Shown: positions 3,011 through 62,254 of the stretch, piece by piece
Layout of the letters: every line of letters starts with the position of its first letter
How positions within the stretch are numbered: position 1 is the first letter of the stretch
DNA from: Candidatus Yanofskybacteria bacterium RIFCSPLOWO2_02_FULL_45_18
GTDB taxonomy: Bacteria > Patescibacteriota > Minisyncoccia > 2-02-FULL-40-12 > GWA2-44-9
DNA length: 62,254 bases
Direction: 5' to 3'
Assembly (NCBI GenBank): GCA_001795795.1
Contig: MGKV01000007.1
Location: 14,553-76,806, forward strand
Notes under the pieces: generated by a model
The model's input: the letters and a program-made list of their open reading frames with translations, nothing else
Database searches by the model: none
Told to the model about the DNA's origin: nothing
Program-made: the position numbers and the translations under genes

Positions 3011-3661
3011 ATGAGATTTCCCAACAAAACTTTAGAAAAGCAACTTTTCAAATCCGGCTATCAGCTGGTTGTTGGCGTGGATGAAGTGGGGACGGGTTCT
3101 CTGGCTGGGCCAGTGGTGGTTTGCGCCGTGGCGATGACCAACACTTTTTATAATAAACATCATAAAAAACTGCGTCGCCTTCGTGATTCCAAATTACTAC
3201 TCCCCCACCAGAGAGAAAAATTTTCAAAACAGCTAATTCGCGAATCAAATCTGGCTTACGCTATTGCCTCAGCCAGCCCAAAGGTTGTTGACAAGATTAA
3301 TGTTTATCAAGCGGCGCGGAGAGCGATGAAGAGAGCTATTGTGGCCCTTCGGCCGATTCAGGGCAATAAGTACTGTCGGACGATAGTACTTATTGATGGC
3401 AAAACAAAAATCAACGGGCTCGAATTAGAACAGATGCCTATCGTTAAGGGCGACTGCAAGGTGTTCGCAATCGCCTGCGCCTCGGTTATCGCCAAGGTCC
3501 ACCGCGACAAAATGATGGTTTGCTACGCTAAACGTTATCCGGGCTATGGCTTTGAAAGGCATAAAGGATATGGGACAAAGTACCATCAAGCACAGCTTCT
3601 AAAACAAGGCCCTTGCGCCATACACAGGGAATCCTTTGCACCAGTTGCAAAATTAATCTAG
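3011..3661 (+). CDS. rnhB: Ribonuclease HII
   Basis: VGVDEVGTGSLAGPVVVCAV active-site region and the C-terminal HR.SF motif. ATG at 3011 is preferred over the track TTG at 3005. Confidence 0.9.
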   Translation: MRFPNKTLEKQLFKSGYQLVVGVDEVGTGSLAGPVVVCAVAMTNTFYNKHHKKLRRLRDSKLLLPHQREKFSKQLIRESNLAYAIASASPKVVDKINVYQAARRAMKRAIVALRPIQGNKYCRTIVLIDGKTKINGLELEQMPIVKGDCKVFAIACASVIAKVHRDKMMVCYAKRYPGYGFERHKGYGTKYHQAQLLKQGPCAIHRESFAPVAKLI

Positions 3662-3691
3662 AATGGATAAATAACCTTGTAATTTTTTACT

Positions 3692-4768
3692 ATGGCAAGA
3701 ATTGCAATTAACGGCTTCGGCCGCATTGGACGCGCGTTTTTTAAATTGGCATTGGAAAAGCCGGAGTTGGATATTGTTGCCATTAACGACCTTGGAGATA
3801 TTGAATTTCTGGCCTACTTGCTTAGGTTTGATTCGGTTTACGGTAAGTTTAAAAAATCCGTTTCAATAAAAGAAGGCAATCCTTCAATAAGTTCAGGACA
3901 AAAACAAAAGTTTTTGGTTGTAGGGGGCAAGGAAACGTTATTTTTGCAGGAAAAAGATCCTCTGAATCTGCCGTGGAAGGATTTGGGTGTTGATATTGTG
4001 GTTGAATCCACTGGTGTCTTTGAAAGCTATGAAAAGGCGAGAGTCCACATAGCGGCGGGCGCCAAAAGGGTAGTCCTGACTGCTCCGGCGAAAGACGAAG
4101 ATGGTTCGGTAAACTCACCACAAGTCGGCCCAGATGGCCGCACAGTATTAGTTGGTGTCAATGATGACCAGCTTAAAACCTGTACCATATCCTCCAACGG
4201 TTCTTGTACTACCAATTCTGTTTCCCCCGTTATGCAAATTTTGACGGAGAAGCTGGGCGTGAAGAAGGCATATCTTAACACTACGCATGGCTATACGGCA
4301 ACGCAGGTTTTGATGGACGGCTTGCCGGGTAAATCAAAGGACTTTAGGCGCGGGCGGGCGGCGGCGGCTAATATTATTCCTTCTACAACCGGCGCGACGA
4401 CGGCGGTGGCAAGGGCGATAGAATCGCTCCGCGGTAAGTTTGACGGCATATCTTTGCGGGTGCCGGTGCTGGACGGCTCAATCTCGGCCATTACTTTTAT
4501 TTCGGAAAAACCGACCACGGTTGAGGAGATAAACAATATTTTCAAAGAAGCGGAAAAAGATCCGCGCTGGCAGGGCATTCTGCGCACCACCGAAGACCCT
4601 GTCGTCTCAACTGACATTGTTGGCGATCCGTGCGCGGCCATTGCAGACCTCTCCCTTACGCGGGTGGTGGACGGCGACTTGTGTTGCGTTTACAGTTGGT
4701 ATGACAATGAGTTTGGGTATACGAATACATTGGTGCGGCATGTTATTAAAGTGGCCGCCACTTTGTAA
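3692..4768 (+). CDS. gap: Glyceraldehyde-3-phosphate dehydrogenase
   Basis: INGFGRIGR Rossmann motif, SNGSCTTN catalytic Cys motif and WYDNEFGY at the C-terminus. Confidence 0.95.
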   Translation: MARIAINGFGRIGRAFFKLALEKPELDIVAINDLGDIEFLAYLLRFDSVYGKFKKSVSIKEGNPSISSGQKQKFLVVGGKETLFLQEKDPLNLPWKDLGVDIVVESTGVFESYEKARVHIAAGAKRVVLTAPAKDEDGSVNSPQVGPDGRTVLVGVNDDQLKTCTISSNGSCTTNSVSPVMQILTEKLGVKKAYLNTTHGYTATQVLMDGLPGKSKDFRRGRAAAANIIPSTTGATTAVARAIESLRGKFDGISLRVPVLDGSISAITFISEKPTTVEEINNIFKEAEKDPRWQGILRTTEDPVVSTDIVGDPCAAIADLSLTRVVDGDLCCVYSWYDNEFGYTNTLVRHVIKVAATL

Positions 4769-4860
4769 ATTAAAAATGCAAAGTGAAAAATTAAAAATTC
4801 AGGTTATTGAAAATTTTTATAAAAATTTTTAATTTTAATCATTTTGATTTTTGAATTTTA

Positions 4861-5145
4861 ATGAAAAATTTTTTTGAAATTTTTCATAACATCGGCCCCC
4901 AATACGCCTTCATCGGCGGGGAGGACTTGCGTCGCGGCATATTGCTTAGTGTGCCCACGCTGGCAATCCTTTTGGTTACCGGCGCCTTGATATTGATTGA
5001 AGCAATCATGCAGAAAAACATCGTCAAAGGAGGATTCGGACGCTTTGTTTTATGGCTGTGCGTCAAAATTGGATTTGCCGGCCTGATTGTCAGTATAATC
5101 TACCTCGCCATCGGCGGCGTTAAATTATTAATTTCTAAGTTTTGA
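4861..5145 (+). CDS. Small membrane protein, hypothetical
   Basis: 94-aa ORF with two clear hydrophobic helices. Confidence 0.55.
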   Translation: MKNFFEIFHNIGPQYAFIGGEDLRRGILLSVPTLAILLVTGALILIEAIMQKNIVKGGFGRFVLWLCVKIGFAGLIVSIIYLAIGGVKLLISKF

Positions 5146-5149
5146 GATT

Positions 5150-5344
5150 ATGGATAATAAATTTACAGAGAAACAGGTTTTTATTTTGGTAATTGCAATT
5201 GTCGCGGGGATAGCGTTTATGGAGACAAGTCATGCTTTAGGGACTAGAGAATTCTGGAGAGAGTTTGGCCTAAAATTGTTTGGGTATGGTTTGATTGCCG
5301 AATTTAGTGTTGTATTACTGGGACAATTGCTGAATAAAGATTAA
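5150..5344 (+). CDS. Small membrane protein, hypothetical
   Basis: 64-aa ORF with two hydrophobic helices, 4 nt after the previous ORF. Confidence 0.5.
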   Translation: MDNKFTEKQVFILVIAIVAGIAFMETSHALGTREFWREFGLKLFGYGLIAEFSVVLLGQLLNKD

Positions 5345-5376
5345 GCAACGCGACGCTTTTATTGCGATATCCTTTA

Positions 5377-6276
5377 ATGTCAATACACGAGGAAAAAATT
5401 AAAGAGCTGGAGTTAAAAGCCAATGAAATCCGCCAGTCGGTGATTGAGATGCTCGTTGAGGCGGGGTCGGGGCATACGGCGGGGCCGATGGGCATGGCTG
5501 ATATTTTCACGGCGCTGTATTTTCATGTTCTAAATCACGATCCCAAGAATCCAGAATGGCCGGAGCGTGACCGCCTCATACTTTCCAACGGCCATATTAC
5601 GCCGGTGCGCTATGCCGCGATGGCTCATGCCGGATATTTCCCCATTGAAGAATTAAAAACCCTGCGTAAATTAGGCACGCGATTGCAGGGGCATCCCGAG
5701 CGGGAACGACTTCCGGGGGTTGAAACAACCTCCGGTCCGTTGGGCTCTGGTTTGGGGCAGGCCTGCGGAATCGCTTATGCGGCGCGGATGTCCGCCCCAA
5801 AGGGGCGAGGTTTCGCCTCCGAAGGAGGCGGAGATGGCACAAGATTCAGAGTTTATTGTATAATGTCAGACGGGGAGCAGGAGGCGGGAGTTACTTGGGA
5901 GGCGGCGCTATTTGCCGGAAAGAACAAACTTTCTAATCTGACCGGCATAATTGACCGCAACAATATCCAGATTGACGGCATGACCGAGAATATTATGCCC
6001 ATTGAGCCGTTGCGCGCCAAATACGAAGCATTTAACTGGCATGTTTTGGAAATTGACGGCCATAATATTGAGGAATTTGTGGACGCGGTTGAGGAGGCAA
6101 AGGCAATTTACGAAAAACCGACGGTAATAATTGCCCACACTATTCCGGGCAAAGGCATCCCCGAAATTGAGTTTGATTATAAATGGCATGGAATTCCGCC
6201 CAAACCGGAGGAAGCAAAAAAGTTTTTGGATGAATTAAGGACATTGAAAGGAAAGATAGTAAGCGAACACCAGTAG
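5377..6276 (+). CDS. Transketolase, N-terminal (TPP-binding) subunit
   Basis: GSGHTAGPMGMADIF, LSNGH and GDGE motifs. ATG at 5377 lies inside the track ORF 5362..6276. Confidence 0.9.
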   Translation: MSIHEEKIKELELKANEIRQSVIEMLVEAGSGHTAGPMGMADIFTALYFHVLNHDPKNPEWPERDRLILSNGHITPVRYAAMAHAGYFPIEELKTLRKLGTRLQGHPERERLPGVETTSGPLGSGLGQACGIAYAARMSAPKGRGFASEGGGDGTRFRVYCIMSDGEQEAGVTWEAALFAGKNKLSNLTGIIDRNNIQIDGMTENIMPIEPLRAKYEAFNWHVLEIDGHNIEEFVDAVEEAKAIYEKPTVIIAHTIPGKGIPEIEFDYKWHGIPPKPEEAKKFLDELRTLKGKIVSEHQ

Positions 6277-6353
6277 ATTAATCGACAATTGACAACAAAC
6301 AACTGACAACTTTTGTTATAAGTTGCAAGTTGCCACAGCAAGGAGGTGTCTAT

Positions 6354-6677
6354 ATGAATATGATGCATCATGGAGGTATGTGCCGATGTCCGCACCACAT
6401 AGGGGCGATGGTTTTGGGTATTCTTGCTTTTGTCGCCGGTGTTTTGTTTTTCTGGACTTCCGTCACCAGCGGTTTGGGCAAGAGTGGCATAGTTTTGGGA
6501 TTTAATGCCAACTATTACTTTATGGCGGCAATAGTAGCGGTGATTATGGCGCATAGCGCCAAGTATTGCCGGTGCTGTTATGGTATAATGAAGAATAAGA
6601 TGATGAGCGATGGCGTGTGCGCGCACGGCGAAGGCGACAAGTGCGAGCATTGCGAGAAGCCAAGTGATAGAATTTAG
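6354..6677 (+). CDS. Cys/His-rich small membrane protein, hypothetical (possible metal binding)
   Basis: AAGGAGG sits 8 nt upstream of the ATG at 6354. Begins MNMMHHGGMCRCPHH, then two TM helices, then a C-terminal CRCC...CAHGEGDKCEHC. Confidence 0.65.
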   Translation: MNMMHHGGMCRCPHHIGAMVLGILAFVAGVLFFWTSVTSGLGKSGIVLGFNANYYFMAAIVAVIMAHSAKYCRCCYGIMKNKMMSDGVCAHGEGDKCEHCEKPSDRI

Positions 6678-6798
6678 GAATTAGAATTTAGAAATTAGAA
6701 GTGAGAAAAAATTTACTTCTAGTTTCTATTCTCTAATTTCTAATCAGCCATCAGATTTATACTATTTGATTAGAAATTAGTAACCATAGATTGTTGTT

Positions 6799-7143
6799 AT
6801 GGCTCGGATAATTCTTGAAAAAACAATATTAAAGAACGCCAGAGTGAGATTTATTCTTGAACTGTTGAGTGTTTTTATCGTGGGGCTGGTCGTTGGTATT
6901 GTCTTTCTCCGGCCGACCAAAACAACCAATGGTCCGCCGGGGTATACGCCAACACCGAGCGGGCAATATTGCATACAGGTCATTACCCAGGCCTTTAATC
7001 CCCAAACCGGAGATGTAGTTGATTTCCCCACGCCCTGCGACGTGCCAAAGGGATGGGAAGTCGCACCCGCGGGATGTCATTATGAAAAAGTCGTCTGCGT
7101 TATAGCTCCATGTAAACCTGTTTTGATTTGCCCGACGCCTTAA
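6799..7143 (+). CDS. Small secreted/anchored Cys-containing hypothetical protein
   Basis: 114-aa ORF with an N-terminal TM helix followed by a Pro/Cys-containing domain. Confidence 0.55.
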   Translation: MARIILEKTILKNARVRFILELLSVFIVGLVVGIVFLRPTKTTNGPPGYTPTPSGQYCIQVITQAFNPQTGDVVDFPTPCDVPKGWEVAPAGCHYEKVVCVIAPCKPVLICPTP

Positions 7144-7171
7144 AAATTTTCAATTTTTAATTTTAAATTTC

Positions 7172-7203
7172 CAATGAATTTTCAATGTCGCATTGATTCA
7201 TTG
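7172..7203 (+). repeat. CAATG-hairpin spacer element, copy 1
   Basis: CAATGAATTTTCAATGTCGCATTGATTCATTG. Near-identical copies lie at 24067 and 47734. Confidence 0.75.
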
Positions 7204-7211
7204 ATAATTTA

Positions 7212-8219
7212 ATGAAAATTGAAAATCGTGAATTGTTAAATTTAAAGGCCAAATTAGTTGACAATCTCTTCGACAAGGAATATTTGCAATATGTCCCGAC
7301 CCGTGATGGCTATGGCAAGGGCTTGGTTGAAGCGACCGAAAGGGATGAACGGGTAGTGGCGCTTTGCGCCGATCTGACCGAATCAACGCGGACACATTGG
7401 TTCGCGGAAAAGTTTCCCGAAAGATTTGTTCAAATGGGCGTGTCGGAGCAGGCCTTGGCGGTAATCGGTTCGGGCATGGCCAATTACGGCAAGATTCCTT
7501 TCATCGCGTCATATGCGGTTTTTAGTCCCGGACGCAACAATGAGCAGATCCGCACCAACATTTGCATAAACAATGTGCCGGTCAAAATTGTCGGCGCGCA
7601 CGGGGGAGTATCGGTGGGCCCCGATGGAGCAACGCACCAAGCATTGGAAGATATCGCATTGATGCGCGTATTGCCGCGGATGGTAGTGGTGGTGCCATGC
7701 GATGCTTTTGAAGCGCAAAAGGCGACGGTGGCGGTGGCCTTTAACGGCCAGCCGAGTTATTTGCGCATCGGGCGTGAGAAATCACCCATTTTTACTACAG
7801 CCGAAACGCCATTTGAAATCGGTAGGGCGGAAATTTTTCGCGACGGTAAGGATGCCGTCATTATCGCATGCGGGATACTTTTATATAATGCTCTTTCGGC
7901 CGCCGAGGAATTATCAAAAGAAGGCATAGGGTGCATGGTTATAAATTCTCATACCGTAAAACCGTTGGACGAAAAAACCATCATTGAAGCGGCAAAAAAG
8001 TGCGGCGCTGTCGTATCGGTTGAGGAACATCAAATCGCCGGTGGACTCGGTTCCGCCGTGGCCGAGTGTCTTGCTAAAAACTACCCTGTCCCGCAGGAAT
8101 TTATCGGCATGCGGGACCGCTTTGGCGAATCAGGGAAGCCGGAGGAGCTTTTTGAGCATTTTGGTATGGGGGTCGGGGCGGTTAAAGAGGCGATTCGAAA
8201 AGTTATAAAGAGAAAGTAA
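7212..8219 (+). CDS. Transketolase, C-terminal (pyrimidine-binding) subunit
   Basis: 335-aa ORF. FVQMGVSEQ, GPDGATHQALEDIA and a C-terminal domain typical of split transketolase. Confidence 0.9.
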   Translation: MKIENRELLNLKAKLVDNLFDKEYLQYVPTRDGYGKGLVEATERDERVVALCADLTESTRTHWFAEKFPERFVQMGVSEQALAVIGSGMANYGKIPFIASYAVFSPGRNNEQIRTNICINNVPVKIVGAHGGVSVGPDGATHQALEDIALMRVLPRMVVVVPCDAFEAQKATVAVAFNGQPSYLRIGREKSPIFTTAETPFEIGRAEIFRDGKDAVIIACGILLYNALSAAEELSKEGIGCMVINSHTVKPLDEKTIIEAAKKCGAVVSVEEHQIAGGLGSAVAECLAKNYPVPQEFIGMRDRFGESGKPEELFEHFGMGVGAVKEAIRKVIKRK

Positions 8220-8271
8220 GATTGACCTGTGGATATTGAAAATTTGGGCTTTTAGTGTATAATAGCAATAT

Positions 8272-11016
8272 ATGAAAAAATATACATTTTTGGCCACCTT
8301 TTTGGCCGTTTCCGGTATTTTGATTACCGCATTTTTGCTGGGCGGCAATAGCCAGCCGGCAAATGCCCAAGCGGTTGCTCTTGAATTGAATGTTTCGGTC
8401 AGTCCGTATCCGCAGTATCCGGCCAGTCCGGTTACGATATCCGCTTCGGTTGCCGGTTCCCAAGGGCACCAGTTGCGCTATCGTTTTGACTGCACCAACG
8501 ACGGAACTTGGGATACCGAGATTACGCATGTTGCGACAACCGTTTCGGGGATATGTTACTATCCCGCGGTTGGCGGCTATGCCGCGCATATAAGCGTCCG
8601 GGATTTGGTTGACAACCGAAATGACACCACATTCGTGCAAATGGTTGTCGTGCCAACGCCGACTCATACTCCGACAATCACACCGACTCCCACAGTAACT
8701 CCGCCACCGGTTCACAATCCGAATATCCGTATTTTGGCCCCTTCTTCAGGCAAGGTTGAAAGACGCGTCCTGATAATCGGTTCCGGTTTTACCAAAGAGG
8801 ACAATTATATTGTCTTTGGTCCGGGCTATATTCCCATGCCGGAGGGTTCTTTGGTTGGGCGTATCATTGCCTTTAATATTCCAAAAGAAGTTGTATCTCC
8901 CGTTTGTTTGCCTCTCCAGCCGGAACCGTGTCCGCCAAGCCAGCGCATTGCCATAACTTCGGGTGAATACGCGGTATCGGTAACTAACCGTAACGGTACA
9001 AGCAACAGCAAAACCTTTACTGTTACTGGAGTAATTCCGCCGCGGACGGCCATCAAGGTTTTAACGCCCAATGGCGGCGAATCTTGGCTTTTGGGCAGTA
9101 AGCAAAAAATTTCATGGCAATCATTGGTTGCGTCGGCAAACAGCCGTGTTGACCAAATCAATCTTTTGCGCGGAGAAATTCCAGTTCTTAACATATTCCA
9201 ATTCCAAGAAGGCGGCGGCTTGCCCACCGTAGGTTCGCTTAATTGGCAGATACCTCAAAATCTTGTTCCGGCTGACAACTACCGCATCCAGGTAGTTATG
9301 GTTGCGGGCAGTCAAAAATTTGACGATTTTAGCGACAAACCTTTTGCGATTACCTCTGAAACCGGTATTTTAAGCGTTTATTTAAACCAAAAATTTTATT
9401 TGAAGGTTGGCCAAACCGCCGAGGTTCAGGACTACCGTAAATTGCATCTGACTTTTGACAAGGAAATACCGATCGTCTGCATTACAACGCCATGTTATAA
9501 CCAAGGCCAATTTTCCGTAAGCATTCCCTTCTTAAAAGTTCCGACGGTTACATTTAATTTGGCAGTTGGCCAGAGCCAAGAAGTGTATGGCGCGAAAGTG
9601 TCCATGTTGGCTTTGCAAAATGGCGTAGCCACTATGTTGGTGGAGGCAAAACCAATTCAGCCATCCGCAATTAAATTAATGTTCCCCAATGGCGGCGAAT
9701 CTTGGCAGGCCGGCTCAATTCAAATGATCAGGTGGAGCGCTGAAAATGTCAGCAAAGTAACTTTGAAATTAAGGCGCGATTTGACTGGCGATACGGTCAA
9801 AGGAATTGCGGAAAATCTTCCAAATACCGGCTATTATGTCTGGCAGGTTCCCCGCGATTTGCCCGGCGCTGATGATTACAGAGTGCGGGTTATCTCTGAT
9901 GGGGCATCCTCGGATGTAAGCGTGTGGCAAAAAATAGCAGATACATTTAGCAGTTCAGAGGCCGCTGAATCTGCGGTGTTGTTTGACGACAGCGACAAAC
10001 CTTTCAGTATTACCAGTCCGCAAGTTACGCCTACTGTCACTCCGACATCAACTCCTGATGTAACTGTTTCTCTCGGGGTTGTATCTCCGAACGGAGGAGA
10101 GGGTTGGATGCAGGGAGAATCTCACAAGATTAGCTGGCGGGTGTCCCAGAATCCCGATGGCGCATTGCAAAAATCGGGCATGTTCTGGAAGATCTCGCTA
10201 GTCAAGTATATCGTCTGCATTGCTTACCCATGCGTCAGTCCGGAGACCAAACTTATTGAATACGCGGTGTTGGACTTTTCCAGTCCGCAATCTTGGCAGT
10301 GGCTTCCCGTTCAAGATATTGAAGCAGGCAATTATCAGATTAAGGTCAGCTTAATGAGAGAAAAACGCTGTTTGACGATCATTAACTGTCCGAAAGAAGA
10401 AATTGTCCAAGACCTCAGCGATAACTACTTTACCATTCTTCCCCTGCCCTCAACTCCAACTCCAACTCCAACATGTACTGTAGTTGATTGTGCCGCCCCT
10501 CCTCAAGGATGTACATATCAAGGCGGCGATCCCTGCGTTTCCTGCGGTGTTTTAGTTTGTTCTTCCATTACTCCAATTCCCACACTTACGCCAACTCCAA
10601 CGGGGTGTCTTGGCGGTCCGATCGGCTGTATCCGTATCACGGTCAATTATCCCAAGGGCGGGGAAACTTGGAATAACGGCACAACCCAAACGATCAAATG
10701 GTCTTATAACGGCGCTGTTGCGAAGGTAAACGTCGGCCTTATCAGCTGGTATCCGCTATGTACTGCGGAGATTTGTCCGGAACAGCCAGTGCGTCTTTAT
10801 ACTCTTGGCCGATCTGTGGCCAATACCGGCTCATTTGCTTGGATTGTCGGTAAGGACATCAACGGTCAGACGATAAGCAGCGGTAAATATCTGGTTCAGG
10901 TGTCCGATGCGGCAAGCGGCAGATCTGACTATAGCGACGGAGCGGTTTCAATATCTCCGCTGATCCTACAGAAGTCCACTATTTTAGATTCATTCCGCCA
11001 GCTCTTGGGCAATTAG
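8272..11016 (+). CDS. Large secreted multi-domain surface protein (PT-rich linkers, four Kre9/KNH-like PNGGE(S/G/T)W repeats, PKD/IPT-like N-terminal modules)
   Basis: 914-aa ORF with a signal/anchor helix. The motif PNGGESW...I.W recurs 4 times, with PTPT linkers and a Cys-rich CTVVDCAAPPQGCTYQGGDPCVSCG segment. Confidence 0.8.
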   Translation: MKKYTFLATFLAVSGILITAFLLGGNSQPANAQAVALELNVSVSPYPQYPASPVTISASVAGSQGHQLRYRFDCTNDGTWDTEITHVATTVSGICYYPAVGGYAAHISVRDLVDNRNDTTFVQMVVVPTPTHTPTITPTPTVTPPPVHNPNIRILAPSSGKVERRVLIIGSGFTKEDNYIVFGPGYIPMPEGSLVGRIIAFNIPKEVVSPVCLPLQPEPCPPSQRIAITSGEYAVSVTNRNGTSNSKTFTVTGVIPPRTAIKVLTPNGGESWLLGSKQKISWQSLVASANSRVDQINLLRGEIPVLNIFQFQEGGGLPTVGSLNWQIPQNLVPADNYRIQVVMVAGSQKFDDFSDKPFAITSETGILSVYLNQKFYLKVGQTAEVQDYRKLHLTFDKEIPIVCITTPCYNQGQFSVSIPFLKVPTVTFNLAVGQSQEVYGAKVSMLALQNGVATMLVEAKPIQPSAIKLMFPNGGESWQAGSIQMIRWSAENVSKVTLKLRRDLTGDTVKGIAENLPNTGYYVWQVPRDLPGADDYRVRVISDGASSDVSVWQKIADTFSSSEAAESAVLFDDSDKPFSITSPQVTPTVTPTSTPDVTVSLGVVSPNGGEGWMQGESHKISWRVSQNPDGALQKSGMFWKISLVKYIVCIAYPCVSPETKLIEYAVLDFSSPQSWQWLPVQDIEAGNYQIKVSLMREKRCLTIINCPKEEIVQDLSDNYFTILPLPSTPTPTPTCTVVDCAAPPQGCTYQGGDPCVSCGVLVCSSITPIPTLTPTPTGCLGGPIGCIRITVNYPKGGETWNNGTTQTIKWSYNGAVAKVNVGLISWYPLCTAEICPEQPVRLYTLGRSVANTGSFAWIVGKDINGQTISSGKYLVQVSDAASGRSDYSDGAVSISPLILQKSTILDSFRQLLGN

Positions 11017-11031
11017 CATTTGCCGGTTCTT

Positions 11032-11069
11032 AACCAAAACTCCCCCGCCATGGCGGGGGAGTTTTGGTT
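11032..11069. terminator. Bidirectional terminator palindrome
   Basis: AACCAAAACTCCCCCGCC-AT-GGCGGGGGAGTTTTGGTT between convergent genes. Confidence 0.8.
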
Positions 11070-11077
11070 GTAATCGT

Positions 11078-11629
11078 TTAAGCTTCTTCGTTTTTTTGCG
11101 CCAGAAGCTCCTTTATTTTAGCAAGTTCCAAATTGATTATGGAGCCGATTTGAGGGTCGCTTTGGCCGTGCGCGGGGTGATAGGTCGGAAGCAATGAATA
11201 ATCACCGAAGTGAAATACTTTTCCGTGGACATTGCCCAGAGGCAGTTTCAGGCCGATGCCGCTCAACGCCATAGTGCCCAGAGTTACCACAACTTTGGGG
11301 CCGATTGTTTTTATTTCTTCTTTTAGGAAGGGGACATTGGCTTTTATCTCTTTTAGGGTCGGGACGCGATCCGGCGAAGGCCGGTACTTGAGGATGTGGG
11401 TCACGTAAACCTTGCGGGGGTCAATGTTTGCTTTTCTAAGAAATTGGTTAAGCAGTTGGCCGCTTGGTCCGGCGAATGCTTTGCCCTCCCTTTCCTCATG
11501 TTCATCCGGCGACTCGCCGACAAAAGCTATCTTTGAGCCAATCAAACCATGGCCGAAAACCAGCTTTTTACCCTTGAACTTTTTTTTCAAGGCCTCCTGT
11601 ATGTGTTGTAATGAATGGGTTTTTACCAT
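11078..11629 (-). CDS. udg: Uracil-DNA glycosylase, family 4
   Basis: GESPDEHE..GKAFAGPSGQLLN and HPA motifs. Confidence 0.85.
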   Translation of the reverse strand: MVKTHSLQHIQEALKKKFKGKKLVFGHGLIGSKIAFVGESPDEHEEREGKAFAGPSGQLLNQFLRKANIDPRKVYVTHILKYRPSPDRVPTLKEIKANVPFLKEEIKTIGPKVVVTLGTMALSGIGLKLPLGNVHGKVFHFGDYSLLPTYHPAHGQSDPQIGSIINLELAKIKELLAQKNEEA

Positions 11630-11861: not shown

Positions 11862-12572
11862 ATGGATGAGGAGAAAAAAGGAAAATTGAATTTACCGGCT
11901 TCCAAACTGCCGGTTTACAAAGAAAAGGAAGATTTCCGCTCAACTTTTCAGTGGCGGGTTTTTCGCATAATGGCGGAGTTTGTTGATGGCTGGCAGTTTT
12001 TGGCGGACTTTCGGAATACCGTTTCTTTCTTTGGCTCCGCCCGTTTCAAAGAAGGCGAAAGATGGTATGAAGAGTCAAGGAAGCTGGGGGCTTTGTTGGC
12101 CAAGGAAGGGATAGGCGTGGTGACTGGGGGAGGGCCGGGGATCATGGAAGCCGGCAACCGCGGCGCTTTTGAAGCCGGAGGAGAGTCTTTGGGTATTAAC
12201 ATTAAATTGCCGTTTGAACAGCGTATTAATCCCTATGTCCAAAAGAGCATCGGCTTGCATTACTTTTTTGTCAGGAAAGTCATGTTGTCTTACGCGGCTA
12301 AGGCATATGTGTTTTTCCCCGGAGGATTCGGAACGTTAGATGAAGCTTTTGAGCTTTTAACACTTATTCAAACCAAGAAAATTGCGCCAGTACCATGCGT
12401 TCTTGTTGGTAAAGAATTCTGGACGCCTATGCATAAGTTTTTGAATGAGGAGATGCTCGGCAAACTAAAGGCTATTGACACGGAAGATCTTGGCTTGTAT
12501 TCTGTCGTAGATACCGCCGAAGAGGCGTTTGAAATAGTCCGCCACGCTCCACCGAGGGAGTTGTTCTATTGA
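11862..12572 (+). CDS. LOG-family (TIGR00730) Rossmann-fold nucleotide-binding protein
   Basis: GGGPGIMEAGNRGA and PGGFGTLDE motifs. Confidence 0.85.
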   Translation: MDEEKKGKLNLPASKLPVYKEKEDFRSTFQWRVFRIMAEFVDGWQFLADFRNTVSFFGSARFKEGERWYEESRKLGALLAKEGIGVVTGGGPGIMEAGNRGAFEAGGESLGINIKLPFEQRINPYVQKSIGLHYFFVRKVMLSYAAKAYVFFPGGFGTLDEAFELLTLIQTKKIAPVPCVLVGKEFWTPMHKFLNEEMLGKLKAIDTEDLGLYSVVDTAEEAFEIVRHAPPRELFY

Positions 12573-12688
12573 AGCGAAAAGTGTAAAGTGAGAAGCGCAA
12601 AGTGAAAGTGAAAAGGATAGTAAAACTCCGCGAAAGCGGAGCGTTTTTATAAGGGGGGCTAAATATGGTATAATATTAAACATAATTT

Positions 12689-12759
12689 GGGCCCGTGGTC
12701 TAGTGGCAGAACACCGCATTTGCACTGCGGAGACGGGAGTTCGATTCTCCCCGGGTCCA
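12689..12759 (+). tRNA. tRNA-Ala (anticodon TGC), no encoded CCA
   Basis: Acceptor GGGCCCG/CGGGTCC with the G3:U70 identity pair. Anticodon stem CCGCA/TGCGG with loop TTTGCAC. T arm GGGAG-TTCGATT-CTCCC. The D stem has one mismatch. Confidence 0.85.
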
Positions 12760-16812: not shown

Positions 16813-17030
16813 GCCGTGGAAGCGCTATGGGGACAAAAAGATGACCGAGCATCTGGCTTCGGCGGAAATTGTCCGCTGTAATCTGGCGAAATGAGCCGTG
16901 TTTTATCGCGGTCCTTTTTTGTCTGAAATTTTTCCCTTGCTTTTCGGCAAGTTTTTTTGTATTCTATTTTACAATAAGCTAACTCCGCTTTTAATTATTG
17001 GCCATTCGCCAATGGTTATTGGCTGAACAC

Positions 17031-19067
17031 ATGGATTACAATCTCATCGCATTTTTTGTATCAATCGGGGCGTTGGTTTTTGCCGGTTTTCTAGCGCGCT
17101 GGGTTTTGCGGCAGGGTCAGGGAACGCCGGCGATGCAGGAAGTTGCTGGCATTATCCGTGAGGGCTCTAACGCCTTTGTTAAGCGCCAATACAAGACCAT
17201 TGCTTTAATCAGCTTGGCGTTGGCGGCGGTTCTGCTTTTGGTTTACGGGTTATCCGGCCAATGGATTCACGGCTGGCAAACGGCGGGCGCGTTCATCTTT
17301 GGCGCGGCATCGTCGGCGGTGGCCGGTATTGTGGCGATGTTCGTATCGGTCAGAGCCAATATCCGCACGGCTGGCGCCTCCCAGCACGGTCTGCCATCGG
17401 CTATGCGGGTGGCCTTTCGCGGCGGCGCCGTGTCGGGCATTATTATCGTTTCCATGAGCTTGCTGGGAATCAGTATTCTCTTTTTGATATATAACTGGCT
17501 GGGATATGATATTAAGGAAGTCCCCGGCCTGATTGTCGGTTACGGCTTCGGCGCTTCTCTGGTGGCTTTATTCGCCCAGCTGGGCGGCGGTATCTACACC
17601 AAAGCGGCGGATGTCGGCGCCGACTTGGTCGGCAAGATTGAAGCTGGCATTCCCGAAGACGATCCTCGCAATCCGGCGGTTATTGCCGATTTGGTGGGCG
17701 ACAATGTCGGCGACTGCGCGGGACGCGGCGCGGACCTTTTTGAATCAACGGCGGCCGAGAATATCGGAGCGATGATACTGGGCGTGGCGCTTTACTCCCA
17801 CTTCGGCATCAAGGGGATAATGTTCCCGCTGGTGTTGAGGGCGTTTGGTCTGGCGGCAACGGTTATCGGTATTTTCAGCGCCAGTTCCAAGCATAACGAG
17901 AATCCGATGAAAAGCTTGAACCGAGGTTATTGGGTTACCAGCGCTCTGGCGGCGGTTGCCTTCTATTTCATCACTAAAAATATGCTGGGCAATATGTGGT
18001 TCTTTCTGGCCGGTATCGTGGGTCTTTTTACTTCCGTTATTTTTGTATATATCGCCCAATACTATACCGAATCGCGCTATCGGCCAGTGAAAGAGATTGC
18101 CAAGGCATCTACCACCGGCCATGGCACCAATGTTATCGCCGGTTACGCGGTGGGCCTTGAATCAACCGGCTTGACGATAATTACGATTGCGGGCGCCCTG
18201 CTTCTTTCGTTCTGGATTGGCGTGAAAAGTGGCATTCCCAACGGCGGACTTTACGGCACGGCGGTGGCAACGATGGGTATGCTGGCAACGGCGGCTTATG
18301 TTCTGGCAATGGATGTGTTTGGCCCGATCACCGATAACGCCGGCGGCATTGTGGAGATGTCGCATTCGTCGGAAGAGGTTCGCAAAACAACTGATGTGCT
18401 TGACGCGGCGGGTAATACGACCAAAGCATTGACCAAGGGCTATGCCATTGGTTCGGCGGCACTGGCGGCGTTTTTGCTGTTCTCGGCATATCTTGAGGAG
18501 GCGCGCATAACCTCGGTTGACTTGGCCAAAGTTCCGGTATTCGTCGGAGCGCTGATCGGCGGGATGCTGGTGTTTCTTTTCAGTTCTTTGGCTATCCGCG
18601 CTGTCGGCAAGGCGGCTTACTATATCATTAACGATGTGCGGGCGCAGTTCAAAGAAAAGCCGGGAATTATGGCCGGCACCGAAAAACCTGATTACGGGCG
18701 AGCGGTGGACATTACTACTCGTGGGGCCTTAAGAGAAATGGTTTTGCCGGGAGCTCTGGCGGTAGTAGTGCCGATTGCGGTGGGAATAACGCTGAAAGCC
18801 GAGGCGGAAGCGGGGTTTTTGATGGTTGGCACGATTGCCGGTATTTTGATGGCGACATTGATGAACAACGCCGGCGGAGCGTGGGACAATGCCAAAAAGT
18901 ATATTGAATCCGGCGTGTACGGCGGCAAGCGCAGTCCGGCGCATCAGGCGGCCGTTACCGGCGATACCGTCGGCGATCCGTTCAAGGACACCGCCGGCCC
19001 GTCCTTGCACGTGCTCATTAAGTTGTTAAGCACGCTGACATTGGCTTTGGCGGTATTGTTCAGGTAG
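17031..19067 (+). CDS. hppA: Membrane-bound proton/sodium-translocating pyrophosphatase
   Basis: GGIYTKAADVGADLVGK, DNVGDCAG and GDTVGDPFKDT motifs with about 16 TM helices. ATG at 17031 is preferred over the track TTG at 16998. Confidence 0.93.
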   Translation: MDYNLIAFFVSIGALVFAGFLARWVLRQGQGTPAMQEVAGIIREGSNAFVKRQYKTIALISLALAAVLLLVYGLSGQWIHGWQTAGAFIFGAASSAVAGIVAMFVSVRANIRTAGASQHGLPSAMRVAFRGGAVSGIIIVSMSLLGISILFLIYNWLGYDIKEVPGLIVGYGFGASLVALFAQLGGGIYTKAADVGADLVGKIEAGIPEDDPRNPAVIADLVGDNVGDCAGRGADLFESTAAENIGAMILGVALYSHFGIKGIMFPLVLRAFGLAATVIGIFSASSKHNENPMKSLNRGYWVTSALAAVAFYFITKNMLGNMWFFLAGIVGLFTSVIFVYIAQYYTESRYRPVKEIAKASTTGHGTNVIAGYAVGLESTGLTIITIAGALLLSFWIGVKSGIPNGGLYGTAVATMGMLATAAYVLAMDVFGPITDNAGGIVEMSHSSEEVRKTTDVLDAAGNTTKALTKGYAIGSAALAAFLLFSAYLEEARITSVDLAKVPVFVGALIGGMLVFLFSSLAIRAVGKAAYYIINDVRAQFKEKPGIMAGTEKPDYGRAVDITTRGALREMVLPGALAVVVPIAVGITLKAEAEAGFLMVGTIAGILMATLMNNAGGAWDNAKKYIESGVYGGKRSPAHQAAVTGDTVGDPFKDTAGPSLHVLIKLLSTLTLALAVLFR

Positions 19068-57627: not shown

Positions 57628-57850
57628 GCGTTCCGGTGTATAATAGATGCCCTAAAATCTCAGCCAATTATGGGGTTGCATATTGAGCTATTCTATGCTG
57701 TAATGATAGATATAGAGCCTTTAAAATGCTGTGGCAAAACCAATCTGGTGGAGCCTAAATTCCATAAGGAAGCAGCAAATGTTCCGTTCAAATCCTTCCT
57801 CGGATAAGAGGAAAATGAAAATGCGCAAGGAAGCGCAAGGAGATAAGGCC

Positions 57851-58546
57851 ATGAGTACTGAGTTTGCATCTGCCGGCTTCACTGCCGGTCAGCTCAACGC
57901 CATCGTTAAGAAGCTTGGTGGCGAAGAGAGCGGGAGACAGTTTCTCCGTGGTGGCCTGACGGTCAGTTACCAGAAGCTGGCGCAGTTTGTCGGCTTAGAC
58001 GGAAAGGTCACTTTGGAGAATTTCATGAAATGTGTGACCAGCTGGCGCGAGCAAGATGGCGTCATATGTTTCAGCGTCACTTCCGATGGGACGACTGGTC
58101 CCCAGTGGGTTGAGCGTCTCAAGAAGAAAGGTTTTCAGCTCTCGAAGTGGGCCAAGGACGTTTTAAACTCAAAAGATTTCCAGCCCACAAACGGAGTTAC
58201 GACCGAAATTGCGGTTCTGAAGGGGATGCTGTTTGAGGATGACGATCGTATCACCAAGAAAATCCGCGCTGAAGCCAACCGCCGCAAGTTTACCAAGCCT
58301 AATGCTGAAGTTGCTTGCCTGATACGCGAAATGTTCACGGATGAGGAGATTGAAGCCATGGGTTTGGTGTGGATTACTACCATGCACGAACCCATCAAGG
58401 ATTCTGATGACGATCCGCACCTCCTCATTGTGTACCGCGACGTCAGTGGTCGCTGGTTGTACGCGTATTACGACGAGCCTGACTACTTGTGGAATCGTGA
58501 CTTTGGGTTCGCATTCGTTGTCCCGCAAGTTAGTCCTCAAGACTAA
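57851..58546 (+). CDS. Hypothetical protein (231 aa) carried by the secY-adk insertion
   Basis: AAGGAG 7 nt upstream of the ATG at 57851 (inside track ORF 57731..58546). C/G-ending codon preference. Aromatic C-terminal module ...GRWLYAYYDEPDYLWNRDFGFAFV. Confidence 0.75.
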   Translation: MSTEFASAGFTAGQLNAIVKKLGGEESGRQFLRGGLTVSYQKLAQFVGLDGKVTLENFMKCVTSWREQDGVICFSVTSDGTTGPQWVERLKKKGFQLSKWAKDVLNSKDFQPTNGVTTEIAVLKGMLFEDDDRITKKIRAEANRRKFTKPNAEVACLIREMFTDEEIEAMGLVWITTMHEPIKDSDDDPHLLIVYRDVSGRWLYAYYDEPDYLWNRDFGFAFVVPQVSPQD

Positions 58547-58789: not shown

Positions 58790-59017
58790 TTGGATGCCCT
58801 GCTGGAAAATCAGGAGCTCATCCCCGAGTCCTGGAAGAAAGATGAGCAAGGCAACACTCGCTATATATTTTTCTGGGGCACCATCTATCGCCGCGGCTCC
58901 GGTGGCCGCCTATATGTCCGCTCTCTGTGCTTCCACGATGGCGGGTGGTTCTGGTACTGCATCTGCCTTGACTACGACTTCTGTGGCCTCTACCCGGCAG
59001 CTGTCTCCGCAAGTTGA
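58790..59017 (+). pseudogene. 5'-truncated gene fragment abutting repeat copy 2
   Basis: The open frame begins exactly at the repeat boundary, with no SD or ATG. Encodes ...LIPESWKKDEQGNTRYIFFWGTIYRRGSGGRLYVRSLCFHDGGWFWYCICLDYDFCGLYPAAVSAS. Confidence 0.55.
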
Positions 59018-60775: not shown

Positions 60776-61644
60776 GCCACTGATAATGAATATCCTATAT
60801 AAAATTATTAATTTAAGTGGCTAATAAGCGTCTGGGGTTTCGCGCTCAAATCATGCCGCTTAAAGCGGCGTTTATATTTTATAAAGGAGTTTGCTGGGGC
60901 ATTTACAATCAATAATTGCAGCCGGTACCGGAAACAATTATTGGCGGTAAATGCAAGAATCTTGATAATTTAAGCCCGTGAGAAGTGTGGCACCGAAATG
61001 CCATCACAACCGTAGGGGTTACTTCTAAACGGGATAAAGTATGATAGCGGGTTAAGTTAATTTTAAATTTCCGTTGCGTAGCAACGGATGTGTTACTCAT
61101 TTGGAAGTCGTAACCAAGCTCTTTCGTAACGAAATTTCCAGATTTCGAGTGAAGCGAGGAAAAATTTTGATGTATACTGAACGTATATGGAAAAATTTTT
61201 CCGAAGCCATAGCCGAAATACGGGAATTGCAGTAGAAAAGGTTTGGTTACGACTTCCAACTAATAAGGGCGTATGGAGGATGCCTTGACACTAAAAGGCG
61301 ATGAAGGTCGTGGCGTGTCTGCGATAAGCTTCGGGGAGGCGACTAGCAGCCTTTGATCCGGAGATGACCGAATGGGAAAACCCCGCGCGGCAAACCCGCG
61401 CGAGCGCCGCTTTACAGCGAAGTTAAAAGTAAAAAATCAAAAGTCAAAATTTCAATTCAAAAGTTAAAAGTTTCAGACAATTTTTAATTTTAACTTGTAG
61501 TTTTGAATTTTGCATTTTGAATTTTGAATTCGCCGCAAAGCGGCGTGGCGTACCTGGCGAAGTGAAACATCTCAGTAGCCAGAGGAAAATAAATCAAAAA
61601 GATTTCCTTAATAGCGGCGAGCGAACGGGAAATAGCCTAAACCG

Positions 61645-61737
61645 TGTGGCTCACCTTTGTTGAGCCACCGCGGACTTTGCGGACTAAACGCGGAACTACG
61701 CGGACAAACTAAAAAATGTCTGCGTAAGTCGGCGTAA
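61645..61737 (+). repeat. rRNA insertion element, copy 1
   Basis: Identical over 93 nt to 62162..62254. Hairpin GTGGCTCA-N7-TGAGCCAC, then GCGGAC-type units. Confidence 0.97.
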
Positions 61738-62161
61738 AGTCAGCGTTAGTCGGCGGTGACGAGCAGAGGCGAGTCACATGGGGTAATAGGGATAGGACAC
61801 TTCTAGAATCTAGAAGATAGAATCCAGAAAGTAGAAAGAGGAGTAATCCAAATTCTATTTTCTGTTTTCTATTCTCTATTTTCTAGATAAAGAGTTACAA
61901 AGTTGGATGTTAGCAGAACGGCCCTGGAATGGCCGACCATAGCGGGTGACAGTCCCGTATGCGAAAATGTTCAACCTCTTGTTCTGTTACCTGAGTAGTC
62001 CGGGATAAGATTGTCCTGGGTGAATTTGCCCATACTACTGGGTAAGGCTAAATACTTTTAGTGATCGATAGTGAACCAGTACCGTGAGGGAAAGGTGAAA
62101 AGCACCCCGGTGAGGGGAGTGAAATAGTAACTGAAACCATATGCCTACAAAGAGCCGGAGC

Positions 62162-62254
62162 TGTGGCTCACCTTTGTTGAGCCACCGCGGACTTTGCGGA
62201 CTAAACGCGGAACTACGCGGACAAACTAAAAAATGTCTGCGTAAGTCGGCGTAA
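62162..62254 (+). repeat. rRNA insertion element, copy 2 (truncated by the window end), in the helix 25 loop region
   Basis: Identical to 61645..61737. Follows ...CCTACAAAGAGCCGGAGC. Confidence 0.95.

Follow-up and report, generated by a model that had tools for sequence, protein, structure and literature searches.

A hairpin element repeated at non-homologous sites of a Yanofskybacteria 23S rRNA gene and a probable family of intervening-sequence-like cassettes in related rRNA genes

The window analyzed here, a 62,254-nt stretch of the genome of Candidatus Yanofskybacteria bacterium RIFCSPLOWO2_02_FULL_45_18, ends within a 23S rRNA gene. Its 5' part was aligned by cmscan to positions 1-636 of 2925 of the bacterial LSU model RF02541, with the 3' end cut (Table 1). 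The full gene, available in contigs L001, L002, and L083, runs on for about 5 kb past the window and carries further insertions and LAGLIDADG introns; in L083 it spans 11264 to about 17020. The leader upstream of the gene matches, as reverse complement, the trailers of L097 and L100, and in L083 it pairs (11048-11100) with the trailer at about 17030-17080 at -87.9 kcal/mol (RNAduplex). The long leader-trailer stem that encloses the 23S gene is predicted to be of the RNase III type.

An earlier note on this DNA, made from the letters alone, had described four non-canonical segments in domain I and had proposed an alignment to the LSU covariance model. That alignment confirms four insertions and places each of them: in H10 (the former segment (i)), in H15, between H16 and H18, and in H25. 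Insertions (i) and (iii) are long AT-rich hairpins (folding z = -7.6 and -5.4, respectively), the former being built on an inverted repeat (61405-61474 / 61476-61545). A relative of insertion (i), at 82-86% identity, is present in a domain V insertion of the same 23S gene (L083 15703-15810), and the arm of insertion (iii) matches a TCTAGA-rich hairpin in domain VI (L083 16743-16776). The loop at the H15 position (model 283-288) has 124 nt instead of 6, at 61651-61774, and the H25 insertion begins after ...CCUACAAAGAGCCGGAGC and continues beyond the window end.

Table 1. Features of the 23S rRNA region at the end of the window.
Feature	Position	Strand	Basis or remark
Leader half of predicted 23S processing stem	61037..61090	+	pairs with trailer 3' of the gene, outside the window
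5' part of 23S rRNA gene	61253..62254	+	cmscan RF02541, 408 bits
Insertion (i), AT-rich hairpin, H10 loop	61415..61537	+	123 nt vs 7 at model 162-168 (cmscan)
Element copy 1, complete, 134 nt, UGUG...CACA	61645..61778	+	distal H15 hairpin replaced; host stem CCG/UGG
Local 5' hairpin of copy 1, GUGGCUCA-CCUUUGU-UGAGCCAC	61646..61668	+	8/8 Watson-Crick pairs; outer rod strand in alternative fold
Conserved central arm of copy 1	61668..61756	+	family alignment; arm pairs almost invariant
Arm 5' strand, four CGC-R-GAC units	61668-61705	+	
Apical A-rich loop of arm	61706-61717	+	
Arm 3' strand, four GUC-N-GCG units	61718-61756	+	
Local 3' hairpin of copy 1, GUGAC-...-GUCAC	61756..61777	+	inner and outer 3' rod strand in alternative fold
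Insertion (iii), AT-rich hairpin between 5' strands of H16 and H18	61800..61893	+	94 extra nt after model 312 (cmscan)
Element copy 2, first 93/134 nt, H25 tip	62162..62254	+	cut by contig end

The H15 and H25 insertions contain the same element. The claim that an identical 93-nt stretch lies in two different helices holds: 61645-61737 and 62162-62254 agree at 93 of 93 positions, the helices being assigned by cmscan and by mapping of the flanks to E. coli, and a 30-mer derived from the element occurs at just these two places within the 62 kb (chance expectation 0). The repeat appeared to stop at 93 nt because copy 2 is cut short by the window end. The element itself measures 134 nt (61645-61778) and not the approximately 146 nt (61645..61790) previously given for segment (ii). 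The complete H15 and H25 copies are identical at 133 of 134 positions, and their flanks share nothing. Copy 2 has a diagnostic A, not G, at GUCRGCGG, and its 3' junction, ...GAGUCACA followed directly by GUGACGGUGUGCC, is present in L083, L084, L085, L088, L089, L090, L001, and L002. A third copy of 126 nt, 79% identical, is located in H68 of the same gene. In E. coli numbering, the flanks of the three copies map to 268/- (H15, a helix absent from E. coli), 540/553 (H25), and 1858/1887 (H68), and the sites are therefore non-homologous; placement of the first two copies in homologous positions, which would have contradicted the earlier reading, is found neither with the LSU model nor with the E. 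coli flanks. No gene was called over the element in any contig. A group I or group II intron was rejected as a candidate, as no Rfam family reached its gathering threshold (E<=10 gave spurious miRNA-hairpin matches alone) and 134 nt is too short for an intron core.

The caveat that a contig end at this repeat could be a repeat-induced assembly break proved apt, since other public assemblies contain errors at the same place: L001 has an extra loop of 517 nt, L091 has collapsed by 517 nt, and L002 has an N-gap. Several contig ends also lie in the repeat or adjoin it, and the breakage of short-read assemblies at this repeat explains why the window stops within copy 2. These errors, together with a window end that falls exactly within the repeat, could suggest that H25 holds no copy and that the contig end was wrongly extended into the H15 element. 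However, such an artefact is hardly credible. Six further assemblies of the same organism (L083, L084, L085, L088, L089, and L090), made with different assemblers (MEGAHIT and that of the original study), contain copies 1 and 2 at a distance of 517 nt with no Ns and with proper H25 junctions on both sides; copy 3 is also contained in four of the six. Moreover, copy 2 has its own diagnostic base, and its 3' junction leads into the correct H25 3' strand, which both cmscan and the E. coli alignment accept. Copy 2 is thus real.

Copy 1 folds at -74.6 kcal/mol with z = -10 (RNAfold), and the z values of the nine distinct copies range from -6.7 to -10.4. When flanks are included, the element stem stacks on the host stem, forming a stem-loop with paired ends as in an intervening sequence (IVS). 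The parts named in the earlier note, namely an opening hairpin, four (C)GCGGA(A)C units, an A-rich loop, and four GUCNGCG units, are all present as described. Across the nine copies, 94% of cells are paired, with seven doubly changed pairs in the basal helix, and 18 of the 27 arm pairs never vary. At the unit centers, 35 of the 36 cells are non-Watson-Crick, the 5' center is invariably a purine, and G.U alternates with A.C at unit 4; the units are spaced 10-11 nt apart. The central arm is interrupted at intervals of 3-5 bp by a mismatch or a small loop and is therefore a poor RNase III substrate, and the basal part alone is a near-continuous duplex. The long rod proposed earlier stands as a thermodynamic prediction, being favored over a two-hairpin fold by 2-11 kcal/mol, but the comparison of copies supports local hairpins at the opening and closing ends at least equally: perfect local hairpins occur across the family with four different stem sequences and are the better conserved feature. 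In these models, the variable basal part can form either a continuous rod or two 8-bp local hairpins (a cruciform). The rods contain 48 G.U versus 23 A.C pairs, and for six of the nine copies the sense strand is the more stable one; selection acting on the RNA strand is only suggested, because the G.U excess is modest and one copy is more stable as antisense.

Members of the same family are found in related organisms in H42, H45, and H63 of 23S rRNA and in h6 and h21 of 16S rRNA. One relative has copies in H42, H45, and H63, and in one 16S gene the element is inserted in h6 and again at the h21 base. Matches to the covariance model score 94-148 bits in L101, L096, L100, L112, and L113, of which L096 is a 16S contig whose neighboring protein is without a named homologue. 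The same model detected no copy in the window's other 61 kb or in 80 distant CPR loci. It also gave none in nine rRNA contigs from closer relatives (L103-L111), which were reached via homologues of the intron-encoded LAGLIDADG protein (78-84% identity) and were used as empty-site references. Map-protein relatives in the species-representative collection are at most 53% identical, and the element is present at 0 of 80 loci. The terminus pattern TGTGGCTCACC N95-125 GGCGAGTCACA had 0 matches in species-representative genomes, a set that does not include this organism. A metagenome pattern scan returned nine loci, five of them GC-rich chance matches without covariance-model support, and it missed the element-bearing L086 and L087, so absence elsewhere is weak evidence. 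Every family copy is in rRNA-sense orientation, and neither the metagenome pattern matches nor the window with its flanks, about 71 kb in total, yielded a copy outside rRNA. On the basis of these 71 kb and one incomplete metagenome scan, the family appears so far to be confined to the sense strand of rRNA genes.

Relatives also provide the corresponding sites without the element. The H15 site of the related species L097 is a short GAAA-capped hairpin, the H25 site is empty in L100 and L103, and L108 has the same H68 flanks as this organism around a different insert, which looks like a cassette swap. Overall, H15, H25, H63, and H68 are empty or otherwise filled among L097, L100, L101, L103, L107, L108, L110, and L111, and even the element-bearing relatives have H15, H25, and H68 sites that are empty or hold unrelated inserts. 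The element is thus sporadic among close relatives, as IVSs are. Alignments of filled and empty sites reveal that host bases are not duplicated and that host helix tips are replaced. Also in the manner of an IVS, the element lies inside the rRNA gene, replaces or extends a peripheral helix, and leaves the conserved rRNA on either side intact. Base type and tip type are combined in different ways among copies, and the conserved interior is bordered by four terminal types that are unrelated to one another (identity of 23-52% over the basal 22 nt). In addition, L085 and L088 have A in both copies, and copy 2 of L090 has a copy-3-type tip. To judge from these mosaics, the copies evidently exchange segments with one another.

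We consider it probable that these elements constitute a lineage-restricted family of 124-137-nt self-folding, IVS-like RNA cassettes that live within rRNA genes. At the level of sequence comparison, the alignments establish that the family has been copied between non-homologous sites of these genes. The earlier suggestion of a mobile or duplicative expansion segment is favored by the wider evidence, including the third copy and the family sites in relatives. Each copy would be transcribed within the pre-rRNA and would occupy a site tolerant of extra RNA, in most cases in place of the tetraloop-capped end of a peripheral helix and in two cases at an internal loop or the base of a helix. It would project outward as a closed structure composed of a variable base and a conserved arm with four units spaced by a helical turn. 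Since there is neither flanking homology nor target-site duplication, spread to a new site may have occurred at the DNA level by illegitimate copy-paste, after which the copies may have undergone homologous recombination or gene conversion with one another and across strains.

As to the fate of the RNA, we lean slightly toward removal of the classical IVS type rather than toward a retained expansion segment. In the case of removal, the basal duplex of about 17 bp would be cut by RNase III, and a fragmented but functional rRNA would be left. RNase III excises the classical IVSs of bacterial rRNA, and the rRNA is not religated (PMC4990558, PMC2801512, PMC11270868); short insertions without an ORF at the classical IVS sites of 23S genes in CPR bacteria have been interpreted as probable IVSs (PMC11270868). 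In the account of Brown 2015 given in PMC9297842, CPR insertions are reported to be missing from transcripts. An RNase III signature motif was not found in the six-frame translation of the 62-kb window, which was the part of the genome covered.

The alternative fate, retention of the segment with a function, is possible at a clearly lower probability: the element would be a module of the mature ribosome whose four units serve as a docking platform for a protein or another RNA. This would agree with an arm that is kept in sequence and not in pairing alone, with the near-obligate non-Watson-Crick unit centers, their 5' purine, and the alternation at unit 4, with a spacing that sets all units on one helix face, and with the frequent mismatches that make the arm a poor substrate for RNase III. 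Most sites also lie at classic permissive positions, where eukaryotes or mycobacteria have expansion segments: H15, H25, H45, and H63 correspond to ES5L, ES7L, ES15L, and ES27L, and h6 and h21 to ES3S and ES6S. However, H68 lies near the subunit interface, where a retained 126-nt arm would be awkward. The reported absence from transcripts also stands against retention, and the sporadic occurrence in close relatives, with unrelated inserts at the same sites in sister lineages, argues against a needed function.

Two other histories of the copies have to be weighed. The family might consist of MITE-like non-autonomous DNA transposons that end in inverted repeats and depend on a transposase from another locus, such that the rRNA-only picture reflects limited sampling or survival. 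Its termini, TGTGGCTCACC and GGCGAGTCACA, are inverted repeats matching at 9 of 11 positions, the element is nearly palindromic (the covariance model also matches the minus strand at 63-101 bits), and the family is multi-copy, polymorphic among relatives, and mosaic. This origin is nonetheless unlikely, given target-site duplication at 0 of 8 sites and no direct repeats in the flanks, termini that differ fully between subtypes around a conserved interior (the opposite of MITEs), host helix tips that are replaced rather than merely added to, the same orientation of all copies relative to the rRNA, and no copy outside rRNA in the sequence covered. We regard as improbable an old vertical inheritance with concerted evolution, in which an ancestor with many sites underwent differential loss and homogenization by gene conversion with no recent movement. 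Gene conversion is evident from the mosaics and from the L085, L088, and L090 variants, but this history requires an ancestor with eight or more occupied sites, followed by numerous independent losses so precise that normal tetraloop-capped helices were restored. It is also at odds with the lack of any copy in the relatives reached via the LAGLIDADG protein and with near-identical H15 and H25 copies that have nothing in common in their flanks.

The preferred reading, IVS-like cassettes within rRNA genes, has precedents that it only partly resembles. Like the IVSs in 23S helices 9, 25, and 45 and in 16S rRNA of Salmonella, Campylobacter, Coxiella, and alpha-proteobacteria, the elements are self-complementary inserts of about 100-200 nt that replace helix tips; IVSs too have a patchy distribution among close relatives and are believed to move horizontally, with H25 and H45 as common sites. 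In contrast to classical IVSs, which to our knowledge form site-specific families, one sequence family is present here at eight or more non-homologous sites of the two rRNAs, and its members share a conserved core of periodic units and a base of two hairpins. A further likeness is to the short ORF-less insertions of CPR rRNA genes (Brown 2015; Tsurumaki 2022, 2024), which are from the same clade, shorter than 200 nt, and not introns, and which cluster at IVS-type sites, for example 23IS2 and 23IS4 (PMC11270868). These surveys classify insertions by site, intron type, and ORF and describe no dispersed repeat family copied between sites or between 16S and 23S; our search of the literature found no published description of one. 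Organellar hairpin elements, such as sponge mitochondrial RHEs, fungal double-hairpin elements, and yeast mitochondrial GC clusters, are likewise proliferating hairpin repeats tolerated in variable regions of rns and rnl, often as double or triple hairpins (PMC2800124; PMC4478555). They are, however, mainly intergenic, shorter (stems of 8-18 bp), and organellar, whereas the present family is bacterial, 124-137 nt long, and so far rRNA-only and sense-only. REP/BIME, ERIC, Correia, and Rickettsia palindromic elements are also non-coding, palindromic, and multi-copy, and those of Rickettsia also survive inside genes at structurally tolerant positions. The family differs from such bacterial repeats and from MITEs by its lack of target-site duplications, the absence of detected intergenic copies, variable termini, and uniform orientation. 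Finally, expansion segments are retained, each being homologous by position, and a single module pasted into many sites departs from their usual description in eukaryotes and mycobacteria.

More tentatively, the family may be an rRNA-restricted mobile module, that is, a pre-folded cassette that copies itself in one orientation among permissive 16S and 23S sites and recombines with its siblings. Its periodic mismatched core would then be a possible recognition site for a factor that moves, binds, or trims the module.

Insertions in CPR rRNA genes are known and have been cataloged by site and by intron or ORF content. The present case is a single ORF-less hairpin module that has been copied among no fewer than eight non-homologous positions of both rRNAs, is polymorphic between close relatives, and recombines between copies. 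It offers a concrete mechanism for the seeding and swapping of rRNA variable regions and expansion segments, and its sites are a natural map of where the bacterial ribosome tolerates about 130 extra nucleotides. The family also defines a candidate RNA motif with four periodic units, obligate non-Watson-Crick centers, and a base that may switch between rod and cruciform. As a repeat, it explains the breaks and misassembly of rRNA genes in such organisms, which affects rRNA-based CPR taxonomy. If the mobile-module reading is true, the family would be a living example of expansion segments that arise by the pasting of a ready-made helix and not by gradual growth.

The analysis of the 3' end of the window was centered on a partial 23S rRNA gene. 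A bacterial LSU rRNA was matched by cmscan at positions 61253-62254 (408 bits; model positions 1-636 of 2925, with the 3' end cut by the window), downstream of secY-adk-map, where the ribosomal protein cluster ends. Judging by the naming of its Map and SecY proteins, the organism is a Candidatus Yanofskybacteria (CPR / Parcubacteria). The earlier note had claimed at least four insertions in domain I, and alignment to the LSU covariance model located four relative to the bacterial consensus. In the standard helix numbering, the sites are H10, H15, the H16/H18 region, and H25; the model positions and E. coli coordinates were computed. H15 is missing from E. coli and found in Bacillus. Segments (i) and (iii) fold as long hairpins (z = -7.6 and -5.4), in agreement with their description as AT-rich hairpins, and the 93/93 identity of the direct repeat formed by 61645-61737 and 62162-62254 was reproduced. 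A 30-mer of the repeated element has no other occurrence in the 62 kb, where the chance expectation is 0.

Positions of the insertions, family members, and neighboring features
Feature	Position	Description
Insertion (i)	61415-61537	123 nt versus 7, loop of hairpin at model 152-178 (cmscan)
Insertion (ii)	61651-61774	124 nt versus 6, loop of hairpin at model 274-294 (cmscan)
Insertion (iii)	61800-61893	94 additional nt past model 312 (cmscan)
Insertion (iv)		Opens in H25 directly past CCUACAAAGAGCCGGAGC, continues beyond window (cmscan)
Third copy	L083 13814-13939	126 nt, 79% identical; flanks E. coli 1858 and 1887 (H68)
L101 member	E. coli ~1110	Internal loop, 3' strand of H42
L101 member	E. 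coli 1162/1187	H45
L101 member	E. coli 1702/1764	H63 tip
L096 member	E. coli 66/103	Replaces h6
L096 member	E. coli ~648	3' base of h21
Segment (i) hairpin	L083 11427-11535	Second copy at L083 15703-15810
Segment (iii) hairpin	L083 11815-11848	Similar domain VI hairpin at L083 16743-16776
LAGLIDADG_1 intron and ORF-bearing insertions	L083 14190-14759, 15087-15293, 15296-15325, 16237-16266	
23S leader / trailer	61037-61090 / L083 ~17030-17080	Near-perfect stem possible, ~45 bp
Inverted repeat	61101-61125 / 61235-61259	25 nt, 88% complementary
ORFs between secY and adk	57731-58546, 58790-59017	271 aa and 75 aa, no Pfam match

Several further features of this locus were observed. Pairing of the 23S leader with the trailer can give a stem of the usual RNase III processing type, and an upstream segment can pair with the extreme 5' end of the gene (GGUUUGGUUACGACUUCCAA), a pairing that could compete with the formation of helix 1 or the processing stem. 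The rRNA genes are unlinked, as the 16S gene does not adjoin the 23S gene, and a 5S gene lies 3' of the latter. Two ORFs occupy the secY-adk gap of an otherwise conserved cluster, and the relative L103 likewise has unknown ORFs there. The rest of the 23S gene contains a LAGLIDADG_1 group-I-type intron after ...ACUAUAACUGUC (E. coli ~1920-1930) and two more ORF-bearing insertions, the 3' ends of which have a 30-nt motif in common (77% identical).

Twelve other assemblies of the same organism were collected via the identical Map protein from NCBI MAGs, ENA MEGAHIT assemblies, the original study scaffolds, and JGI. In six of these (L083, L084, L085, L088, L089, and L090), copies 1 and 2 are spaced 517 nt apart without Ns, and the contigs of L083, L084, L085, and L088 also span the entire 23S gene. 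The full element is 134 nt long (UGUG...CACA), the 3' junction of copy 2 leads into the correct 3' strand of H25 (...GAGUCACA followed by GUGACGGUGUGCC), and a single base separates copy 2 from copy 1 (GUCAGCGG versus GUCGGCGG). Copy 2 is genuine and the contig end is a repeat break. The presence of the element at two 23S sites, which the earlier note had qualified as a possible assembly artifact, is upheld by the six gapless assemblies, and its suspicion of a repeat-induced break at the window end accords with the damage that the repeat causes elsewhere. Specifically, 517 bp of 23S domain I are spuriously duplicated in tandem in L001 (GCA_001794515.1, MGJY01000013.1; H16-H24; 12209-12725), L091 has the reciprocal 517-nt collapse with H15 fused to H25, the 5' half of copy 2 is covered by a gap of 23 Ns in L002 (12186-12208), L087 ends within a copy as the window does, and L092 ends shortly past copy 1. 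The cmscan LSU match in L001 and L002 is reported as full (model 1-2925) yet ends within a domain V insertion (L002 15774), with recognizable 23S running on to the locus end (L002 16852). Automated rRNA coordinates are unreliable for 23S genes with such insertions.

The third copy, in H68, was detected when the full gene was searched by low-stringency BLAST with the element as query. A covariance model built on the copies (R1, then R2) gave no further family member, either across the other 61 kb of the window or among 80 distant CPR loci. A metagenome pattern scan, with the 5' hairpin and core start as the query, returned nine loci and missed the known carriers L086 and L087. Five loci were GC-rich chance matches, and every one of the remaining four was an rRNA gene: L097 and L100 carry the 23S of relatives, L101 holds part of the 23S of a more distant relative, with three family members, and L096 is a CPR 16S gene with two, both of which reappear in L112 and L113, assembled independently from a related strain. 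Together, the family occupies eight non-homologous sites in 16S and 23S. An IS3-family transposase pair (rve and HTH_Tnp_1; L113 3533-4646) lies ~1.5 kb from the 16S gene bearing two copies, and no connection of this pair to the element was found.

Empty sites were available for comparison in relatives. H25 is unoccupied in L100 and L103 (...GGAGC-CUGC(A)CGUC-GCAA-GACG(CG)UCGG-GUGACGG) and holds an unrelated 136-nt insert in L101, while H68 has a normal 43-nt tip with a GCAA or UUCG cap in L101, L103, L107, L110, and L111. H15 is a short hairpin with a GAAA cap in L097 and contains an unrelated insert of ~130 nt in L103; H63 is a short hairpin with a UUCG or GCAA cap in the window organism, L100, and L111, and contains unrelated inserts of ~300 nt in L107 and L110. 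Where it sits at a helix tip, the element takes the place of the distal stem and tetraloop, and no host-base duplication was detected at any site in the filled versus empty comparison. The H68 flanks of L108 exactly match those of the window organism (GGUUGAACU ... GGGGAAGCCC), with a different insert of ~100 nt and two hairpins between GGTTGAACT and GGGGAAGCCC. Both local hairpins of this insert, 5' and 3', are perfect and can instead pair with each other. Its difference from the element is confined to the core, a pattern suggestive of an exchange of cassettes between fixed boundaries. Relatives with a 78-84% identical intron-encoded LAGLIDADG protein carry no family member; the family is therefore narrow and patchy. 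L097 is a mosaic in which 3386-8618 is 99.5% identical to L083 11899-17129 (5.2 kb of 23S) with diverged sequence on both sides, and its secY is only 74.5% identical to that of the window organism. As L097 is either a chimeric metagenome contig or the product of recombination or recent rRNA-segment transfer, it was used for the H15 region only.

The predicted fold of each distinct copy is far more stable than those of shuffled controls (z -6.7 to -10.4). In RNAfold, the copies form one long, imperfect rod that stacks coaxially on the host helix, and the rod anticipated from copy 1 is thus supported by thermodynamics. Across a nine-sequence alignment, rod pairing is kept in 94% of cells, seven rod pairs are changed on both sides (five within the basal helix), and 18 of 27 central-arm pairs are invariant. 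The central arm is built from four units at 10-11 nt spacing, in which CGC-R-GAC (5' strand) faces GUC-N-GCG (3' strand). Of the 36 unit-by-copy cells, 35 have a non-Watson-Crick center (G.A, A.C, G.G, A.A, or G.U), and all 36 have a purine as the 5' center base; the center of unit 4 is G.U in some copies and A.C in others, which are isosteric wobble pairs. This conserved, regularly interrupted arm suggests either that some factor recognizes it or that perfectly double-stranded RNA or DNA is deliberately avoided. The basal part exists as four unrelated sequence types, each with a local 5' hairpin. This opening hairpin, also noticed earlier, holds up on comparison of copies (8/8 Watson-Crick pairs in eight of nine, with four distinct stem sequences), and the three non-type-1 copies also have a local 3' hairpin that is equally perfect. 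The two hairpins are near-copies, with transitions as their sole differences, and distal rod pairing is therefore also possible, with G.U pairs in its outer half and A.C mismatches in its inner half. Forcing both local hairpins costs only 2-11 kcal/mol in the nearest-neighbor model, and the element may switch between the rod and a cruciform four-way junction.

Regarding the fate of the RNA, we lean slightly toward excision of the element from the rRNA. H25 and H45, the classical sites of RNase III-excised IVSs, are both occupied by family members, the basal 17 bp provide a near-continuous duplex, and the leader-trailer stem brackets the 23S gene. Surveys of CPR rRNA genes also favor this reading, as they report insertions to be missing from transcripts and consider short ORF-less ones at such sites probable IVSs (PMC9297842, PMC11270868). 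Retention in the rRNA is the alternative, in favor of which are the sequence conservation of the core and its mismatches, which make it a poor substrate for RNase III.

Other hairpins recur within the same gene. The segment (i) hairpin has a second copy, with both arms 82-86% identical, within a domain V insertion that comes after GGGUUCAAACCGU (E. coli ~2593); the pair is a second intragenic family. Segment (iii), which is TCTAGA-rich, has a similar hairpin as counterpart in domain VI, immediately 5' of the sarcin-ricin region, to which one of its arms is 82% complementary, and these may represent a third.

Bacterial IVSs have sites, shape, and sporadic distribution in common with the element, but each IVS family is, to our knowledge, bound to a single site, whereas one family occupies eight here. 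The short uncharacterized insertions of CPR rRNA genes belong to the same class, and a dispersed family is not described in two systematic surveys of them. Organellar repetitive hairpin elements (sponge RHEs, fungal double-hairpin elements, and yeast GC clusters) also enter rRNA variable regions; unlike the element, they are mainly intergenic, shorter, and organellar. The element does not classify as a MITE by the criteria tested, and no description of the family was found in open-access text.

The H15 and H25 copies are identical at 133 of 134 positions and their flanks have nothing in common. L085 and L088 have the same base in both copies, and copy 2 of L090 bears the tip variant of copy 3. 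All combinations of base type and apex type were found across organisms: a type-1 base with a long apex (H42 copy) or a short apex (h21 copy, which shares its apex with the H45 copy at 100% identity), a type-2 base with a short apex, and a type-3 base with a long apex. Every copy is in rRNA-sense orientation, in accordance with the purine-center asymmetry, and under R1, built only from the copies of this organism, five foreign copies score higher on the sense strand, two only marginally. The near-identical H15 and H25 copies, base/apex mosaics, and uniform orientation point to a family that has spread duplicatively into new sites, with subsequent gene conversion between its copies. Homologous recombination is ruled out as the step to a new site because flank homology is absent. 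Classical transposition is also a poor match, given the lack of target-site duplications, variable termini around a conserved interior, uniform orientation, and no copies seen outside rRNA genes in ~71 kb of this genome or in the metagenome pattern scan, which missed two known carriers. Instead, duplicative spread may proceed by illegitimate DNA-level copy-paste at hairpin-forming sites, and selection would then filter for positions tolerated by the ribosome.
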